64,000 nt of DNA from an uncultured Bacilli bacterium (GTDB lineage: Bacteria > Bacillota_I > Bacilli_A > RF39 > UBA660), in NCBI GenBank assembly GCA_934101595.1, contig CAKORR010000001.1, positions 107,558-171,557 on the forward strand, given 5' to 3'. A program made the position numbers and the translations under genes. Shown piece by piece: positions 23,911-41,095 of this stretch. Each line of letters begins with the position of its first letter. Position 1 is the stretch's first letter. Below the pieces are notes generated by a model that worked only from the letters and a program-made list of their open reading frames with translations, did not search any database and had not been told where the DNA came from.

Positions 23911-24288
23911 CTATAAAAAATTTTTACTTGAATTATATAAATTAATAAGTTTATTAAATAAAATCTTATTATTTTTATTTTGTAAATATTCATTTTTAGC
24001 TGTATAAATTTTCCTTTTAATATCTGTTAATCCATTAAATTTGTTTTGATATTTAAGTTTTTCAATATCATTTTTAGAATAATGAATAAAGTTTTCATAA
24101 CGTAAAAGAGTATCATTAATTAAATTATCCAAATTATTAAATTGTTCATTTTTTAACAAAAACATAAATCCCGTATTAAATGGTTGATCATATTTTTTTA
24201 ACTTGTACATATCTAATTTTTGAAAAATGTCTATTACCCCAACAGGTTTACCATCTTTATTCTTTATTAAGTATCTCACTTTATTCAT
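23911..24288 (-). CDS. hypothetical cytoplasmic protein; candidate immunity/antitoxin partner of the upstream LXG-type protein
   Basis: 125 aa with no signal or TM. Sits immediately downstream of an LXG-like effector gene, where cognate immunity genes of polymorphic toxins usually lie. No recognisable motif. Confidence 0.35.
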   Translation of the reverse strand: MNKVRYLIKNKDGKPVGVIDIFQKLDMYKLKKYDQPFNTGFMFLLKNEQFNNLDNLINDTLLRYENFIHYSKNDIEKLKYQNKFNGLTDIKRKIYTAKNEYLQNKNNKILFNKLINLYNSSKNFL

Positions 24289-24329: not shown

Positions 24330-24363
24330 GTTCAATCAAAAAGGAACTAGTATTTAGTTCCTT
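24330..24363 (-). terminator. intrinsic terminator overlapping the stop codon of the 24362-25264 gene
   Basis: Minus-strand hairpin AAGGAACTA-AATAC-TAGTTCCTT followed by TTTTGATTG. Confidence 0.5.
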
Positions 24364-25264
24364 AATTATATTTTTCTATCGAAGTTATATTTCCCTTAAA
24401 TCTAGCATCGGAATTATAGTCACCGGTAGTTCCACCTTTGACTCTTATTGAATCTGGTGATGAGATATAAAACTCTACTAAATCTTTTTTAGTTCCATGA
24501 GAATGATACCAAGATCCTCCACTTGAATGAAAATTATTAGTATCGCTTCCCTTGGCGTCAACTATAATAACATCGAATTCATTTCCAGCATCGGTTTTAA
24601 CTTTAAAGGTGTCTCCCTCTGTACCATAATAAGTTCCCATTGCAACAGTATAGTATTTCTTTCCATCACCTTTATCGACATAACGCATTCCCGTATCATC
24701 AGTTTTAACATCAAAAGTTTGGCCTTCATATTTACCATATGGCATTGGTTTACCATTATTAATAGCATAAGCTGTTGTTGATTTATCTGTTACTTTCTCA
24801 TAATTAGTATATGATTTAAAAGATGTATCTCCACTTGGAACATCCATAGCGCTACCTACCGATGGTTCGGCTACATTAGTTTTTTGAGCTGCCTGTTCAC
24901 TTGCACTAGCGCCTAAAATAGCTTTAGCCGCTGCTACGCCAAATGTTAAAGGATCTTGTGAATAAACATCTTCTGCTTTTTTACCTTCAGATTCATCAAT
25001 TTTTTCTGTTTCTGTAGCTATTTCGTTTAACTTGGTTCTAACAGTTTCACCATAATTACCAAACTCTTCTACAAGGGCTACTAATTTGCTATAAGCAGTG
25101 GATATAGTGGCATTAGCAACACCTTGCAAATAGCCTTCTTCATTTATCTTATTTAGATTATTTTTATATTCAGTCAAACATGTATCAATATTATTTTTAG
25201 CTTTTTGTATTGTGCTTGCTAAGGTTTTTAATTCCTCAGGATTAACTTTTGTATAACTTGACAT
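24362..25264 (-). CDS. LXG-like N-terminal domain protein with uncharacterised C-terminal domain (candidate T7SS-type effector A)
   Basis: 300 aa with no signal peptide. N-terminal ~100 aa helical region with EEGYLQGVANATISTAYSKL (LxG + A-x-x-I-x-x-AY, like YeeF-type LXG domains). Linker ...DVYSQDPLTF.... C-terminal ~150 aa is a beta-rich D/G/K/T/Y-rich domain of unknown function, possibly 3D/YuiC-like (very uncertain). Confidence 0.5.
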   Translation of the reverse strand: MSSYTKVNPEELKTLASTIQKAKNNIDTCLTEYKNNLNKINEEGYLQGVANATISTAYSKLVALVEEFGNYGETVRTKLNEIATETEKIDESEGKKAEDVYSQDPLTFGVAAAKAILGASASEQAAQKTNVAEPSVGSAMDVPSGDTSFKSYTNYEKVTDKSTTAYAINNGKPMPYGKYEGQTFDVKTDDTGMRYVDKGDGKKYYTVAMGTYYGTEGDTFKVKTDAGNEFDVIIVDAKGSDTNNFHSSGGSWYHSHGTKKDLVEFYISSPDSIRVKGGTTGDYNSDARFKGNITSIEKYN

Positions 25265-25273
25265 AATACCTCC

Positions 25274-26167
25274 TTATTTCAAGTATTCATTAGACATTTC
25301 ATCATATTTTTGGTCTAATCGATTAGCTAAATCTTGTTTGGTTATTACCCCGTCCTTATTTAGATCTAATCCTGCATTATAATTATAATAAGACTCGCCT
25401 TTTGTTGCTAAAACATCTTTATTTGCTCTACCTGGTAAGAACATTATTGAATAAAGTGTTCCCGCATCAAGCTCTTGATCTTTATTATAATAATTGCAAT
25501 TTTTTACATATTTTTCAACTAAATCAAGTTGATCTGTTGCGGACATATTAGCTATTTCTTCAGTAGTGTAGCCTAAGCTTTTAGCTGTAGCTGGCATAAA
25601 TTGAATTAATCCTACTGCCCTAGTGCTTTTTTCAATGTGATTTGGATTTAATCCACATTCCGAATACATAATAGCTAGTAAGTCATTGGGATCACAATTA
25701 AGATTTTTAGCGACTTCTTCAACCTTAGCACTAAATCCTGGTTCAAACTTTTGATCCAAACTAGAGGCTAAATTAGCATCTATCACTGTTGTCGCAGTAT
25801 TTGAATTAGTTGTTTTAGCGTTTTCATTATAAGTAAGAGGATCCTTAGAATAGATATCCTCCTCTTTTTTCTGCTCTTCATTTTCAATCGCTTCAGTTGA
25901 CGAAACTATTTCTTTTATTTTACCATTAACAGTATCCGCATATTCTATAAAGTCATTTACCAGAGTAGTAATCCTATTATAGGCAATATTAATAGTTTCA
26001 TTAGCAATTCCTTGTAAGTAGCCATTACTACTAATACTATTTAAATTATGGCGATATTCTTCTAAATCAGATGCTAAATTATTCTTGACTGATTTAATGG
26101 AATTTGCTAAATCATTTAGCTCACTAACATTAACTTTAGTATAAGAAAAATTAGCCATTACTACCAC
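25274..26167 (-). CDS. LXG-like N-terminal domain fused to a family-1 lytic transglycosylase (SLT) domain (candidate effector B)
   Basis: 297 aa with no signal peptide. N-terminus has SNGYLQGIANETINIAYNRI. C-terminus has ...MYSECGLNP...AVGLIQFMPATAKSLGY (SLT E-S ... GLMQ...P-x-TA motif) and a Ca-loop-like DLNKDGVITKQD. Confidence 0.6.
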   Translation of the reverse strand: MVVMANFSYTKVNVSELNDLANSIKSVKNNLASDLEEYRHNLNSISSNGYLQGIANETINIAYNRITTLVNDFIEYADTVNGKIKEIVSSTEAIENEEQKKEEDIYSKDPLTYNENAKTTNSNTATTVIDANLASSLDQKFEPGFSAKVEEVAKNLNCDPNDLLAIMYSECGLNPNHIEKSTRAVGLIQFMPATAKSLGYTTEEIANMSATDQLDLVEKYVKNCNYYNKDQELDAGTLYSIMFLPGRANKDVLATKGESYYNYNAGLDLNKDGVITKQDLANRLDQKYDEMSNEYLK

Positions 26168-26451
26168 CTTGTGGCATTACTATCTTCTATTGCTCTTCTA
26201 TACAAAGCATAAGCATGTCTTGAAAGTACATTATTAAAGCTCTTTAACCATAGGCTACTACTTCTCATTTTGCCAGCATATCCAACTAGAGCTGACTTAT
26301 ATGCGGTAGCATCTACACCAACCCAACTTCTAGTATTATTAATAGCATTTAATAAATCATTGATTGTACTATTCATATCATCTAATAAAGAATCCATTTT
26401 TGCAATAGATGCTTTTACACTTTCATAATCAGCTGCGACTACATTCGCCAT
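26161..26451 (-). CDS. WXG100-family protein (EsxA/YukE-like)
   Basis: 96 aa. Two predicted helices with a central SWVGVDATAYKSAL (W-x-G at residues 43-45). Overlaps the start of the downstream gene by 7 nt (translational coupling). Confidence 0.75.
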   Translation of the reverse strand: MANVVAADYESVKASIAKMDSLLDDMNSTINDLLNAINNTRSWVGVDATAYKSALVGYAGKMRSSSLWLKSFNNVLSRHAYALYRRAIEDSNATRW

Positions 26452-26460
26452 TATATCACC

Positions 26461-26796
26461 CTATCCGTTAAAGTTTGTTGGATCAACACTTAATAAGTCA
26501 TTGTATTCTTTATTAAATTCTGATTCAATAGATTTTTCATCACTAATTATTCCATTAATATCATTTGCTACATTTCCACAATAATTATCAAATTTTTCAT
26601 AAACTTGTTTAATTTTAGTCATGTTATTATCAAAAGCCTCTAAAGCTGAACCTTCAATTTGTCCGGAATTAGCAAGCATTTGCATTGCACTAGAAAATGC
26701 ATTTAATGCATTTCCACAAACTCTTTGAGCTGTTTGCATACTTTTTAAAATATCGTTTAACTGATTTGTGTTAACTTGAGTATAACTATTATTCAT
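26461..26796 (-). CDS. stand-alone short LXG-like domain protein (truncated effector N-terminus?)
   Basis: 111 aa, MNNSYTQVNTNQLNDILKSMQ...NSGQIEGSALEAF.... Homologous to the N-termini of the 24362 and 25274 proteins. Ends ...SVDPTNFNG, right at the linker where the paralogs continue into cargo domains. Confidence 0.5.
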   Translation of the reverse strand: MNNSYTQVNTNQLNDILKSMQTAQRVCGNALNAFSSAMQMLANSGQIEGSALEAFDNNMTKIKQVYEKFDNYCGNVANDINGIISDEKSIESEFNKEYNDLLSVDPTNFNG

Positions 26797-26807
26797 TAAT
26801 ATTCCTC

Positions 26808-27101
26808 CTAATCAAAAATTCTAGCATTTCTGTCGCTTTGAGCTCTTTCATATAGTCTCTCGGCATGACTAATTGCTTGGTTCCCTGCAGCTTCCATCCA
26901 TGCTGCACTATTTTTTAATTTTTGGCAAAAATCTAAAAGTGCTGATTTATGAGCAGTTGCATCTACTCCTTGCCATTCTGTAGCATTATTAATTGCACTT
27001 TCTAAGTTGGAAAGTGCTCTAATCATTTCACCTCTTGAAGATGAAGTTTGGTTAATTCTTGATTTAACCAATTCAAAATTTGTTGCAATATTTGAATTCA
27101 T
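26808..27101 (-). CDS. WXG100-family protein (EsxA/YukE-like)
   Basis: 97 aa with a central EWQGVDATAHKSAL (W-x-G at residues 43-45). Paralog of the 26161-26451 protein. Confidence 0.75.
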   Translation of the reverse strand: MNSNIATNFELVKSRINQTSSSRGEMIRALSNLESAINNATEWQGVDATAHKSALLDFCQKLKNSAAWMEAAGNQAISHAERLYERAQSDRNARIFD

Positions 27102-36137: not shown

Positions 36138-36164
36138 GCAAAAAAACACGATATATTCGTGTTT
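36138..36164 (-). terminator. intrinsic terminator downstream of the 36177-36548 gene, abutting the -35 box
   Basis: Minus-strand hairpin AAACACG-AATATAT-CGTGTTT followed by TTTTTT, then GCTTGACA. Confidence 0.55.
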
Positions 36165-36176
36165 ACATATGCAAAT

Positions 36177-36548
36177 CTAATTATTATGAGCACTATCATT
36201 ATTTAGTGCCATTGATTCAATCTTAATACTATCACTAGCATTTTCAATGTCTTTTGAAACTTCTGTATCAGTACCTTGTTCAGCTTCTACAGTGTCGTTA
36301 ATAAACTTTGTCATATCGGCAAGTTCGTTTTGTAATGTTTCAATAATAGATTGTGATCCACTATTACAAAAGCTATTAAAATCTTCAAAAAATCTTTCGC
36401 TTTTTGGTCCGATCCATGATTTGTTTTCTTCAAGATTTTTAAAGTCTTTTAAAATGGTTTCAATATTTACGATAGTTGAATTCATATAGTCTTTTAACTT
36501 TGATGATATATTTAAAACTTCATCTGTATTTATATATTTTTCTTGCAT
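36177..36548 (-). CDS. WXG100-like small helical protein (W-I-G-P-K-S subtype)
   Basis: 123 aa with a central ...ENKSWIGPKSERFFEDF. Homologous to the 40493-40810 protein (YWLGPKSAIFAEKI). Acidic C-terminal tail. Confidence 0.6.
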   Translation of the reverse strand: MQEKYINTDEVLNISSKLKDYMNSTIVNIETILKDFKNLEENKSWIGPKSERFFEDFNSFCNSGSQSIIETLQNELADMTKFINDTVEAEQGTDTEVSKDIENASDSIKIESMALNNDSAHNN

Positions 36549-36555
36549 AATTCAC

Positions 36556-36825
36556 CTACCTATAAATATCTATTTGTTGATACTCTTTAATATATCTTGA
36601 AAGTTTTTCATTATAATTTTTTAATCCATTAACTACTTTTCTTAGATATACAAGGGTTTCTCCATTTATGTGCCTATCGAATGCTCTTTGATATTTACTA
36701 CTCCAAGCTGTGGTATTACCTGTTAAGTTTTGAATTAATGGAATATTTTCTTGCACTCTTTGGATTAATGTAGCGATATCTTGACAAGCATCAGAAACAT
36801 CTTGATATTTAATTTTTGTATTCAT
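36556..36825 (-). CDS. small helical WXG100-like partner protein (degenerate W-S-S)
   Basis: 89 aa, ...TAWSSKYQRAFDRHINGETLVYLRKVV... Homologous to the 40823-41095 protein (GEWKGKYQEEYDNHINGKTEKYLRKLV). Confidence 0.5.
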   Translation of the reverse strand: MNTKIKYQDVSDACQDIATLIQRVQENIPLIQNLTGNTTAWSSKYQRAFDRHINGETLVYLRKVVNGLKNYNEKLSRYIKEYQQIDIYR

Positions 36826-36840
36826 AATAATCTCCCTTTT

Positions 36841-38511
36841 TTATGAAGCTTTATTTGCTTTCGCATAAATGTTGCCTGTATTTATATAAGAACCTTTTTC
36901 TAATCTTGTATCAACCCCTTGTTTCTTTTGATAATAATTGGCAATCTCATCAGCACTTTTACCTGCTAACTCTTCTTCAGTAAAGTCTGTTTTAGCATAT
37001 TCCAAATGCAAATGGGTTCCAGATGATCGGCCTGTACTTCCCATTATACCAATTGGACTATCGTCTGTTATAACATCGCCGGCTTTAACTTTAGGAGTCT
37101 CTCTTAAGTGGGCATATCTACTCATATAATACGATATAGTTCCATCATCATTTATTACCTCGTGAAGCATAACAACTTCATTACCATAGCCATAATTTGA
37201 ATGTCCTGAATAGACTACAACTCCCTCTTGGATAGGTTTTATAGAAACATTTTCTCGTGATCCCTCAGGAACATAATCACAGCCCCTATGGTCAAAATAA
37301 CCATTACCAGTGCCGTCTTCACTCCATCTCGAATCTATGTATGAACTAATTCTATATGCGTTATTTAATGGCAAATTTATATCTGTTTTTTCAAAAGAAG
37401 AGGCTTCAACGCTCCAACTTGATTTTGAAAGTTTTTCGTAAGAAGCTAATTTATTTATAACTAATGGCTCTATTTCTTCTTTCTCGGCATCAATATAAGT
37501 TTTAGTTACATTTCCTAAATCATTAGAAGCACCTTTTACAGTTGAAGCTAAACCAGGGATTATTATAACTTGGCCAACTTCTATTTGATTTGGGTTAGAA
37601 ATAGTATCTCTATTTGCTTCATATATTTCTTCCCAATCAACACCATACTTTTCAGCAATTTTACTTAATGAGTCACCGCTTGCAATAGTGTATTTCAAAG
37701 GCTCTGTTTTTTTCTCTCCTTCTACTTCCTCATTTAAAGTTTCATCTGCTAAATCTATTAAAACAACGTCTTCATTATTCTCATATTTTGTAATATTATC
37801 AATATGATTTTTACTTTTAACTATAACATCTGTAGCAGCACTTTTTATTTTCTCGATATTTTTTATGATAACACTTCTAAAAGTGCCAATTGGTTCTCTT
37901 ATTATTTTCGCTTTACCATTATACTTTGATATAACTTCCAAAGTACGATTATCATATGTTGAATTACCTAAAGCAGTAATTGTATTTTCACATATTGTAA
38001 TAAGATTTTCGAATAAAGTCGTAACGTTTTCTGCAAAATCTGTTTGGATGCCGAAAACTTCATTTCTTATCATGCCCTGAACTGCAGGTATATTCCAATA
38101 AATTTTAAATTCTTCTCGTAAAATACCAATTCTACGTTGAGTATCAATAAGTTTATTTTTAGCCCTATAATATTCTTGCATATAATGTTCCCATACGGAT
38201 GTCGAAGCCGTACCATCATTTACATGTTCTTTCATAACGGCACAATTATCAAGAGCATCCATAAATTGCTGAAGATCTATTTTTTCTTCTTCAACAAGTA
38301 TAACCATTTCATCTAATTTATTTATTTGATTGATTACATTATTAACAGATGGATATCCAACACTATTAACCATATCTCTTAACTTTTGGCCAACTTGAAA
38401 AGCAACAAACCCCACCCAAGGATCGCTTTCGCTATCACCAAAAAGAGAATTCGGAGCAATTCTTCGAGAAGTTAAAATCCAATTTTGTAAATCAGTTGTA
38501 TTTATGGCCAT
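36841..38511 (-). CDS. LXG/WXG-like N-terminal domain + LysM + M23 (LytM-type) metalloendopeptidase (candidate effector I)
   Basis: 556 aa with no signal peptide. N-terminus has SLFGDSESDPWVGFVAF (L-x-G and W-x-G). LysM at YTIASGDSLSKIAEKYGVDWEEIYEANRD...GQVIIIPG. M23 motifs FDHRGCD (HxxxD) and GTHLHLEY (HxH) are intact. Confidence 0.65.
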   Translation of the reverse strand: MAINTTDLQNWILTSRRIAPNSLFGDSESDPWVGFVAFQVGQKLRDMVNSVGYPSVNNVINQINKLDEMVILVEEEKIDLQQFMDALDNCAVMKEHVNDGTASTSVWEHYMQEYYRAKNKLIDTQRRIGILREEFKIYWNIPAVQGMIRNEVFGIQTDFAENVTTLFENLITICENTITALGNSTYDNRTLEVISKYNGKAKIIREPIGTFRSVIIKNIEKIKSAATDVIVKSKNHIDNITKYENNEDVVLIDLADETLNEEVEGEKKTEPLKYTIASGDSLSKIAEKYGVDWEEIYEANRDTISNPNQIEVGQVIIIPGLASTVKGASNDLGNVTKTYIDAEKEEIEPLVINKLASYEKLSKSSWSVEASSFEKTDINLPLNNAYRISSYIDSRWSEDGTGNGYFDHRGCDYVPEGSRENVSIKPIQEGVVVYSGHSNYGYGNEVVMLHEVINDDGTISYYMSRYAHLRETPKVKAGDVITDDSPIGIMGSTGRSSGTHLHLEYAKTDFTEEELAGKSADEIANYYQKKQGVDTRLEKGSYINTGNIYAKANKAS

Positions 38512-38595
38512 ATTACCACGTCTCTTTCCCTATTCTTTATCATGTTAATTATAATATTATTCTCACATTAAATCAATTATAAAATTAAATACATT

Positions 38596-38623
38596 AAAAT
38601 AAAAATTACAGGGCACCCTGTAA
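38596..38623 (-). terminator. GC-rich intrinsic terminator between the LysM-SLT and LysM-M23 genes
   Basis: Minus-strand hairpin TTACAGGG-TG-CCCTGTAA (plus 38606-38623) followed by TTTTTATTTT. A TTGATT-17nt-TATAAT promoter candidate follows at about 38540-38575. Confidence 0.55.
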
Positions 38624-38627
38624 TCTT

Positions 38628-40484
38628 CTACATTATATCTCGTAACATTTCCGTATACTTCTTATTTAAACGATTAGCTAGATCTTGTTTAGTTATTACT
38701 CCATCGCCATCCACGTCTAAACCCCTATTATAAGAATAATAGCTTTCGCCTTTGACACATAAAGTATTTTTCTTGGCTCTACCTGGTAAGAACATAACCG
38801 CATATAATGTACCAGCATCTAATTCTTCGCCATTTTTGTAAGGACTAGCGCTTTTAATATATTTTTCAACTAAATCAAGTTGATCTGTTGCGGACATATT
38901 GGCTATCTGTTCAGTCGTGTAACCAAGATTACGAGCAGTGCTTGGCATAAATTGGATAAGGCCAACAGCTCTACTACTGCTTTCAATATGAGATGGATCA
39001 AGAGCACATTCTGAATACATAAGAGCAAGTAAATCATTTGGATCACAATTAACATTTTTAGCGACTTGTTCTAGTTTAGCACTAAATCCTGGCTCGAATC
39101 TGTCATCCAAACAACTTGCTAAAGCACTATCTAATACTTCTACTTTAGGAGAGCTAGTATTAGTACTTGTCTGAGCCGCGGATACTCCTTTTTCATTTGC
39201 TCTTTTATGGGCAGCTTCATTTCTATCTTTAGTTGCTTGTTCTCTTTCACTAATTTCCTTAGTATCACTTTCTTTAGATACAGCTTCTTTAACTTCTGTT
39301 TTTTCTTTAACCTCAGATTTTTTATCATCCTTACCAGATTCTGTTTCGTCAGTCTTTTTAGTTGCCACACTAACAGAACCAATGGCTGCAGCACCAATTA
39401 CGCCTTCAAATACTGGAGGGTTAATATCAAATGCTTCCTCTTCTTTTTCCTCAAACTTAAGACCTGTATATTTGCTAATAACATCTGCGGCACTTACAGG
39501 ATCATTACTTTCTTCTTTTTGACCTGGAATTGTAAGCACTTGTCCAGGATATATCAAGTTTGGATTATCGATCTTATCAGCGTTTGCTTCATAAAGCTCT
39601 TTCCAGTCAATTCCATATTTCGCTGCAATTTTAATTAAATAGTCACCTTTTTCAACAACATATGTTCCGTGATTAGAAGATGTACTATCACTACTAGTCC
39701 TTTTTCTTTCTTTAGCATATTCAAAGTCATTACGATATTCAAATTGTTTAATCTTGGCAAAATGATATTTTAACAAATTTAATTGGCGAGTTGCTTCATC
39801 AAGACATTTTTTAATATTAACTTTTATATTATTACACGCTGAATAGAAAAAACCACTAACTTGATAATCACTAGAAGATAAATCGTCATTGCCACTTGGA
39901 ATTTGAAAATCACTTGACCTCATGGAATTCATATTCAACATTTGCATATTTAAATATTTTACTATATTATTTAAGGGCTCAATGACTTGCTTCTCAAAAG
40001 TTGCTAAGTTTATCTCATATTTATCTGAATTATAGTTTTCCCATGGAGTAACCTCTATTTCCACAATTGGAGTTAAAACAGAAACTATTTCTTCTTTCTT
40101 TTTGATGATTTTCTTTTTTAATTCTTTAAGTGTCGAAGATATTATAATCTTTTGTTGAGCCAACATATAAACGTCCGCATGATCTTTATATGCAATTTCT
40201 TCATCTATAGTTTTGCACGCTTTGTATTTACTTTCATAAGATAACTTTAGGGCAAGTAAACCATCGGTTGGATTCATTACTAAATCAACCGCTTTGCTAT
40301 AATCTTTTAGCTGGTACATAATGCCTTCATTTTGGATATAGCTCAACATTCTATCAATAATATAGCATCTCCGCTTTAATTCAGCTGCTCTTTTTCCGTA
40401 AAACATCAAAGTTGCCGGATTAAATCTTTTAGATATCTGATATGCAAGAAAAATATTATTTGTATCTATTTTTACTTTAACCAT
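38628..40484 (-). CDS. LXG-like N-terminal domain + LysM + family-1 lytic transglycosylase (SLT) (candidate effector H)
   Basis: 618 aa with no signal peptide. N-terminus has ...LMFYGKRAAELKRRCYII (compare F-x-G-K-x-A-x-x-I-K of LXG domains). LysM at YVVEKGDYLIKIAAKYGIDWKELYEANAD...GQVLTIPG, then a K/E-rich low-complexity linker. The C-terminal SLT domain is about 70% identical to that of 25274-26167 (MYSECALDP...AVGLIQFMPSTARNLGY). Confidence 0.65.
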   Translation of the reverse strand: MVKVKIDTNNIFLAYQISKRFNPATLMFYGKRAAELKRRCYIIDRMLSYIQNEGIMYQLKDYSKAVDLVMNPTDGLLALKLSYESKYKACKTIDEEIAYKDHADVYMLAQQKIIISSTLKELKKKIIKKKEEIVSVLTPIVEIEVTPWENYNSDKYEINLATFEKQVIEPLNNIVKYLNMQMLNMNSMRSSDFQIPSGNDDLSSSDYQVSGFFYSACNNIKVNIKKCLDEATRQLNLLKYHFAKIKQFEYRNDFEYAKERKRTSSDSTSSNHGTYVVEKGDYLIKIAAKYGIDWKELYEANADKIDNPNLIYPGQVLTIPGQKEESNDPVSAADVISKYTGLKFEEKEEEAFDINPPVFEGVIGAAAIGSVSVATKKTDETESGKDDKKSEVKEKTEVKEAVSKESDTKEISEREQATKDRNEAAHKRANEKGVSAAQTSTNTSSPKVEVLDSALASCLDDRFEPGFSAKLEQVAKNVNCDPNDLLALMYSECALDPSHIESSSRAVGLIQFMPSTARNLGYTTEQIANMSATDQLDLVEKYIKSASPYKNGEELDAGTLYAVMFLPGRAKKNTLCVKGESYYSYNRGLDVDGDGVITKQDLANRLNKKYTEMLRDIM

Positions 40485-40492
40485 ACCTTCAC

Positions 40493-40810
40493 CTACTTTA
40501 CTGATTGTCCAATTGCGTCATCAGTTTCTTCAACTTGACCGCAGGCGTCTTTTATAAATTTTATTAATCCATCGAAATCACTTTCAACATTATCTAAAAT
40601 TGCTCCAGAGTTTTCATTTTTAGCAAAAAATTGAGCTATTTTCTCTGCAAAAATAGCAGATTTTGGACCAAGCCAATAATCGCTGGTTATTTTTTCATAT
40701 GATTGCTTTATAACATTAATATCAGTTAAAATTTCATTTTTCTTAGCGTTTAAAACATCTGCTTTGGCTAATAGTCTATCATAATCGACCATTTGGGTAT
40801 TATCGTTCAT
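40493..40810 (-). CDS. WXG100-like small helical protein (W-L-G-P-K-S subtype)
   Basis: 105 aa with a central SDYWLGPKSAIFAEKIAQFF. Confidence 0.6.
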   Translation of the reverse strand: MNDNTQMVDYDRLLAKADVLNAKKNEILTDINVIKQSYEKITSDYWLGPKSAIFAEKIAQFFAKNENSGAILDNVESDFDGLIKFIKDACGQVEETDDAIGQSVK

Positions 40811-40822
40811 TTCTTCACCTAC

Positions 40823-41095
40823 TTATTGATCTATTTTTTGGTAACCTTGCATAGTTTTTTCTAAATAATTATTAAAATCTTCAAAACAGGTTACCAATTT
40901 TCTTAAATATTTTTCTGTTTTACCATTAATATGATTGTCATATTCCTCTTGATATTTGCCTTTCCATTCACCATTAGAAATGGCATCGTTTAACATAGAA
41001 TCAATACTAAGTTGTAGTTGTGAAATATATCTTTTAATAAGATTAATTTCATTTCTAATTTCAGTATAATGAACAGAAACCTTCTCATTATTCAT
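40823..41095 (-). CDS. small helical WXG100-like partner protein (W-K-G)
   Basis: The track ORF extends to 41197, but the likely start is ATG at 41093-41095 (MNNEKVSVHYTEIRNE...), preceded by AAGGTG. 90 aa with a central GEWKGKYQEEY. The 5' extension would overlap the mutS terminator. Confidence 0.5.
   Translation of the reverse strand: MNNEKVSVHYTEIRNEINLIKRYISQLQLSIDSMLNDAISNGEWKGKYQEEYDNHINGKTEKYLRKLVTCFEDFNNYLEKTMQGYQKIDQ

Follow-up and report, generated by a model that had tools for sequence, protein, structure and literature searches.

Among the closest described counterparts of the genes analysed here is the LXG toxin of T7SSb with Lap1 and Lap2 (or Lap3 and Lap4), as in TelA, TelC and TelD of S. 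intermedius (PDB 8GMH), and the FxxxD of Lap1 is essential for LXG export (PMC9600955, PMC10801868). The T7SSa signal consists of YxxxD/E and the WXG of the partner protein, and the Leu of LxG occupies the turn as does the Trp of WxG (PMC9600955, PMC10801868). T7SS variants f and j are found in Clostridia (PMC11217815). Peptidoglycan hydrolases are not among the T7SS substrates listed in reviews to 2026 and the wall hydrolase EssH is Sec-exported (PMC13059805), which agrees with the claim of an earlier sequence-only reading that wall-hydrolase cargo is an undescribed role.

The window, the whole 64,000-nucleotide stretch analysed here, has two loci whose products are probably T7SS-type (WXG100-dependent) substrates with a peptidoglycan hydrolase as cargo. 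Locus 1 is chromosomal, located between mutS and nusB, and it probably encodes two modules that are substrates of a type VII-like export route. The six minus-strand ORFs that had been claimed at 36177–41095 were all found, together with the motifs ascribed to the small proteins:

40823–41095, minus strand: A1, a 90-aa family-A hairpin protein, ORF with RBS; W44-K-G in the turn and C-terminal Y85-Q-K-I-D89
40493–40810, minus strand: B1, 105 aa, family B, with the canonical WxG at its centre (W46-L-G48-PKS)
38628–40484, minus strand: E1, 618 aa, signal-less; N-domain aa 1–262 (nt 39699–40484), LysM aa 275–320 (nt 39525–39662), K/E-rich linker and SLT lytic transglycosylase part aa ~447–618 (nt 38631–39146) containing Glu492 and, at 590–601, an EF-hand-like loop
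38601–38628, minus strand: terminator-like hairpin directly after E1, 12-bp stem and T-run
38548–38576, minus strand: possible promoter of sigma-70-like type before E2, TTGATT-17-TATAAT; the evidence is weak, the DNA being AT-rich
36841–38511, minus strand: E2, 556 aa, signal-less; N-domain aa 1–262 (nt 37726–38511) with a conserved W32-V-G34, LysM aa 274–319 (nt 37555–37692) and M23 metallopeptidase aa 408–507 (nt 36991–37290)
36556–36825, minus strand: A2, an 89-aa family-A paralogue; W41-S-S and C-terminal Y82-Q-Q-I-D86
36177–36548, minus strand: B2, a 123-aa family-B paralogue with W45-I-G47-PKS
36144–36164, minus strand: terminator-like hairpin after B2

All six ORFs are preceded by a Shine-Dalgarno sequence. 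A longer, 124-aa ORF for A1 was rejected because that start has no RBS, and the 90-aa call is therefore correct. The genes had been taken for one operon; the gene set and strand stand, but the terminator after E1 and the TTGATT-17-TATAAT before E2 imply that the locus is probably two transcription units, with promoter-like sites of this kind occurring near the chance rate (48 found versus 39.9 expected). In module 2, the partner genes A2 and B2 are downstream of the large gene, not upstream.

The two large proteins are built on a colinear scaffold, with the LysM domain beginning at residue 275 in E1 and 274 in E2. The description of E1 as LysM-SLT and E2 as LysM-M23 was borne out by Pfam (E1, LysM 57.7 bits and SLT at 474–531 with 30.3 bits against a cut-off of 21.3; E2, M23 with 54.7 bits) and by residue checks, with Glu492 of E1 intact within 'MYSEC' and the M23 motifs of E2 intact as H408xxxD412, Y-A-H468-L and H500xH502. 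The catalytic domain of E1 matches the lytic transglycosidase of PDB 9udh end-to-end, including the EF-hand-type Ca loop (E=3e-17), as well as PHROG baseplate-hub and virion transglycosylase families, and its phage relatives are virion-borne enzymes that pierce the wall from outside in. All six proteins are without a hydrophobic segment, as had been claimed for the Sec signal, the maximum 19-residue Kyte-Doolittle mean being 1.43 compared with 2.67 in an anchored LRR neighbour; signal-less status was judged by this hydropathy measure. The N-domains of E1 and E2 are near-orphans. WxG is conserved in the N-domain of E2 and in its orthologue P0083 (W-Y-G there), which is colinear, 31% identical and keeps every M23 motif. 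The labels 'LXG-like' and 'LFG' given by the sequence-only reading are interpretive and unsupported by any HMM; no protein matched PF04740 (LXG), DUF3130 or DUF3958, which counts against the T7SS reading and leaves "LXG-like" unproven for E1 and E2. The low pLDDT of the E1 N-domain model (39) was also counted against it.

The small proteins form two families of true paralogues (A1/A2, 33% identity, E=9e-16; B1/B2, E=1e-8) whose motifs stay the same in paralogues, in strain variants and in one second lineage, and the locus-1 pattern is thus beyond chance. A1 matches PF06013 end-to-end (E=1.1e-4, 22.8 bits) and TIGR03930 (E=1.9e-3), B1 matches the same two models (E=2.5e-3 and 3.7e-3), and A', the family-A orthologue on L085, matches NF035934 (E=8e-4); family B on L085 has an additional domain fused to it. 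For seven proteins (A1, B1, A', L2, L0, L1 and W2, the last four from the second locus) a WXG100/ESAT-6 model is the best or nearly the best match, that of W2 being marginal (E=0.07–0.09). None of these scores reaches its curated cut-off (best scores 28.4 versus 44.85 for TIGR03930 and 23.5 versus 27.3 for PF06013), which counts against the T7SS reading, as do hhalign probabilities of at most 14%, at which no relationship among the four hairpin families can be demonstrated. The AF2 model of A1 (pLDDT 80.7) is a hairpin of helices 3–40 and 49–89 whose turn contains W-K-G and whose second helix ends in YxxxD, and a Foldseek search of 350,542 chains with it ranks Bacillota EsxB and EsxA first (TM 0.70–0.73). 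The WXG100-like nature proposed for the small proteins is upheld by these repeated matches and the structural ranking, at scores under the cut-offs.

YxxxD is invariant in A1, A2, A' and every full-length strain variant and is the sole [YF]xxx[DE] in the family-A proteins; it falls within the last 10 residues in 3 of the 64 window ORFs of at least 80 aa, consistent with A1, A2 and one other. W46 and G48 (B1 numbering) of WxG are invariant throughout family B. Family A keeps the turn Trp, with the G lost in two of three members, a point against the T7SS reading. In the window and six flanking loci, only four ORFs encode a small helical protein with WxG at its centre, all of them in the two loci described here. 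At the sequence level, the YxxxD of family A and the WxG of family B together mirror the bipartite T7SS export signal.

The second locus, at 24362–27101 and 10 kb from the first, was missed by the sequence-only reading and has two WxG proteins and three others that have in common a WXG100-type domain of ~107 aa with an LxG turn:

26808–27101, minus strand: W1, 97 aa, central E-W-Q-G-VDA; weak PPE-family match (E=3.4e-3)
26461–26796, minus strand: L0, 111 aa, cargo-less L-type N-domain member; TIGR03930 E=6.2e-5, aligns with L1 and L2
26161–26451, minus strand: W2, 96 aa, central S-W-V-G-VDA
25274–26167, minus strand: L1, 297 aa; ~107-aa WXG100-type N-domain (L-Q-G turn) and SLT with EF-hand loop
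24362–25264, minus strand: L2, 300 aa; same N-domain type (L46-Q-G48) and a different ~190-aa cargo
23911–24288, minus strand: X, 125 aa, downstream of L2; membership of the locus uncertain

L1 matches SLT (E=6.9e-9, with Glu170), WXG100 (E=0.02) and TIGR03930 (E=3.3e-4), and its SLT domain is paralogous to the E1 C-terminus (59% identity, E=2e-91). The N-domain of L2 is 51% identical to that of L1 and matches PF06013 (E=6.6e-5) and TIGR03930 (E=1.4e-6), while its cargo reappears as the C-terminal part of a protein with FN3 repeats in L103. Thus one SLT cargo type is carried on two different N-modules (E1, L1) and one N-module type carries different cargos (L1, L2). The direct fusion of a WXG100/LxG domain to SLT strengthens the case for the T7SS-type reading. 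X gave no family match and is kept beside L2 in other strains; it is the sole candidate for an immunity gene.

The two strain contigs covering the cassette of locus 1 in full (L001/L002 and L092) carry six of six genes, in agreement with partial contigs and with the member counts of all six clusters, and the ORFs, RBSs and active sites are intact in every strain contig read. In a second lineage E2-A-B is held between mutS and nusB, with NusB 75% and E2 31% identical. The cassette evolves fast and is almost restricted to this lineage. A1 and B1 hardly vary and the E1 N-domain occurs as two allele types that are 76% identical, so that no co-variation backs an interface, which was counted against the T7SS reading. 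Counted likewise were the absence of EssC/EccC-like ATPase, YukD, EsaA and EssB-like genes from the window and ~30 kb on each side (~126 kb), and of an immunity gene from locus 1, which makes the locus atypical of antibacterial T7SS toxins.

In the mechanism we propose, the large protein, which lacks a Sec signal, would be synthesised in the cytoplasm and two cognate hairpins would bind its helical N-domain. The 'export arm', a C-terminal YxxxD, would come from family A and the WxG turn from family B and the E2 N-domain, giving a composite signal that may be read by an EssC/EccC-type FtsK/SpoIIIE ATPase encoded elsewhere. Outside, as judged from domains and active sites, LysM would dock on glycan strands, the Ca-loop SLT of E1 would cut the glycan backbone and the M23 of E2 would cut peptide cross-links. 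Locus 2 may be a compact form of the same logic, with the WXG100/LxG domain fused to cargo and accompanied by WxG partner genes. The enzymes seem somewhat more likely than otherwise to be effectors that breach neighbours' walls or to make openings through which other exported proteins pass; that the producer remodels its own wall with them is less favoured, at a little under even chances. If the reading is true, wall-degrading enzymes are a cargo class not described for type VII secretion.

Several other explanations were weighed. E1 and E2 could be spore enzymes made in the mother cell and deposited through LysM at the cortex/coat boundary, as SafA, SpoVID, SleL/YaaH and CwlJ are, with a role in cortex remodelling or germination; the small helical proteins would then be their partners in assembly. 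LysM hydrolases without a signal are typical of spore coats in B. subtilis, and this uncultured spore-forming gut bacterium carries spoIIGA-sigE-sigG and spoIVB. The SafA/ExsA spore-coat LysM model is the best NCBIfam match of both LysM domains, but at 48.8 and 37.5 bits it is under the 67.85 cut-off; the M23 domain of P0083 weakly resembles SpoIIQ, and a link between EsxA and sporulation is reported in B. cereus (PMC11406982). This account is nevertheless unlikely, given the sigma-A-type −35/−10 before E2 (weak evidence), the fusion of SLT cargo to a WXG100/LxG domain, the outside-in virion relatives of the catalytic domain, and WXG100-type partners with YxxxD and WxG, which accompany no known spore hydrolase. 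Similarly improbable are signal-less autolysins in the style of LytA or holin-exported lysins, which would stay cytoplasmic until lysis or a holin-like pore, with the small proteins as cytoplasmic chaperones or inhibitors and their WXG100 likeness that of any generic helical hairpin. Neither locus has a holin-like small membrane protein, WxG and the C-terminal YxxxD are kept exactly at the T7SS signal positions, ESAT-6/WXG100 models recur as best match for seven independent proteins, and N-terminal WXG100-type fusions to cargo are hard to square with inhibitors.

Gram-positive T4SS hydrolases usually join SLT to M23 or CHAP, and the proteins might be wall-opening hydrolases of a conjugative T4SS, analogues of VirB1 such as PrgK, TraG of pIP501 and CwlT. 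Genes for a VirB4-like ATPase, for a VirD4 coupling protein (E=2e-54) and for a protein with a SpoIID domain do occur ~30 kb past the window, and TraF of the T4SS is structurally homologous to EssB (PMC13037476). However, that module is known from another strain's contig, is separated from the cassette by ~55–65 kb that include housekeeping genes, and has its own hydrolase candidate; known hydrolases of this kind are membrane-anchored and inside the transfer operon, neither of which applies to E1 or E2, and the mutS-nusB site is conserved in two lineages, making the idea very improbable. Least probable, and already largely refuted, is a decaying prophage or mobile-element remnant without coordinated function, to which the many phage relatives of the catalytic domains and the missing cassette in L005, the nearest MutS relative, could point. 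Integrase, tRNA, structural and packaging genes are all absent around the cassette, viral contigs and plasmids carry no relatives of its non-catalytic parts, its GC content is unremarkable, and its reading frames and second-lineage synteny are preserved; the possibility of phage or ICE cargo raised by the sequence-only reading was checked, and the locus is neither of these, nor is it plasmid cargo.

Type VII-like export of wall hydrolases thus remains the preferred reading, and the loci resemble and differ from known systems as follows. With LXG-Lap they share a large signal-less protein with an all-helical N-domain and C-terminal enzyme, two small helix-turn-helix neighbours, one of them with a C-terminal export-arm motif (FxxxD or NKxxDD in Lap, YxxxD here), the hydrophobic-x-G turn motif and modular cargo. 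They differ in having no PF04740, DUF3130 or DUF3958 similarity, partner genes downstream in module 2, LysM between N-domain and cargo, no immunity gene and no T7SS machine within ~126 kb, and in the type of cargo, a peptidoglycan hydrolase here where LXG proteins carry a nuclease, NADase, membrane toxin or lipid II phosphatase. Like the EsxA/EsxB heterodimers and PE/PPE pairs of T7SSa, they have adjacent ~100-aa hairpins with a C-terminal YxxxD/E and a WxG turn, the A1 model superposing at TM 0.70–0.73 and W1 giving the weak PPE match; on the other hand, HMM scores are below cut-offs, family A is without the G in two of three members, and the pair accompanies a 556–618-aa enzyme here whereas there it is the sole substrate. 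Signal-less wall hydrolases that use specialised secretion are also found among the Gram-negative T6SS amidases (Tae/Tse1) and muramidases (Tge), which act as antibacterial effectors through a different machine and targeting from those proposed for locus 1 and, to our knowledge, always have an adjacent periplasmic immunity gene, where locus 1 shows none. PrgK, TraG of pIP501 and CwlT (T4SS) and PcsB, CwlO and EnvC (FtsEX) resemble E1 and E2 in SLT and M23 domains and a helical N-region, but have signal peptides or membrane anchors, no WXG100-type partner genes and a different genomic context. EssH, the CHAP hydrolase of the S. aureus T7SSb, is a T7SS-linked wall hydrolase that needs its non-catalytic N-domain for this link, but it leaves the cell by a Sec signal peptide, is expressly excluded from the T7SS substrates (PMC13059805), and has CHAP without LysM or WXG partners.

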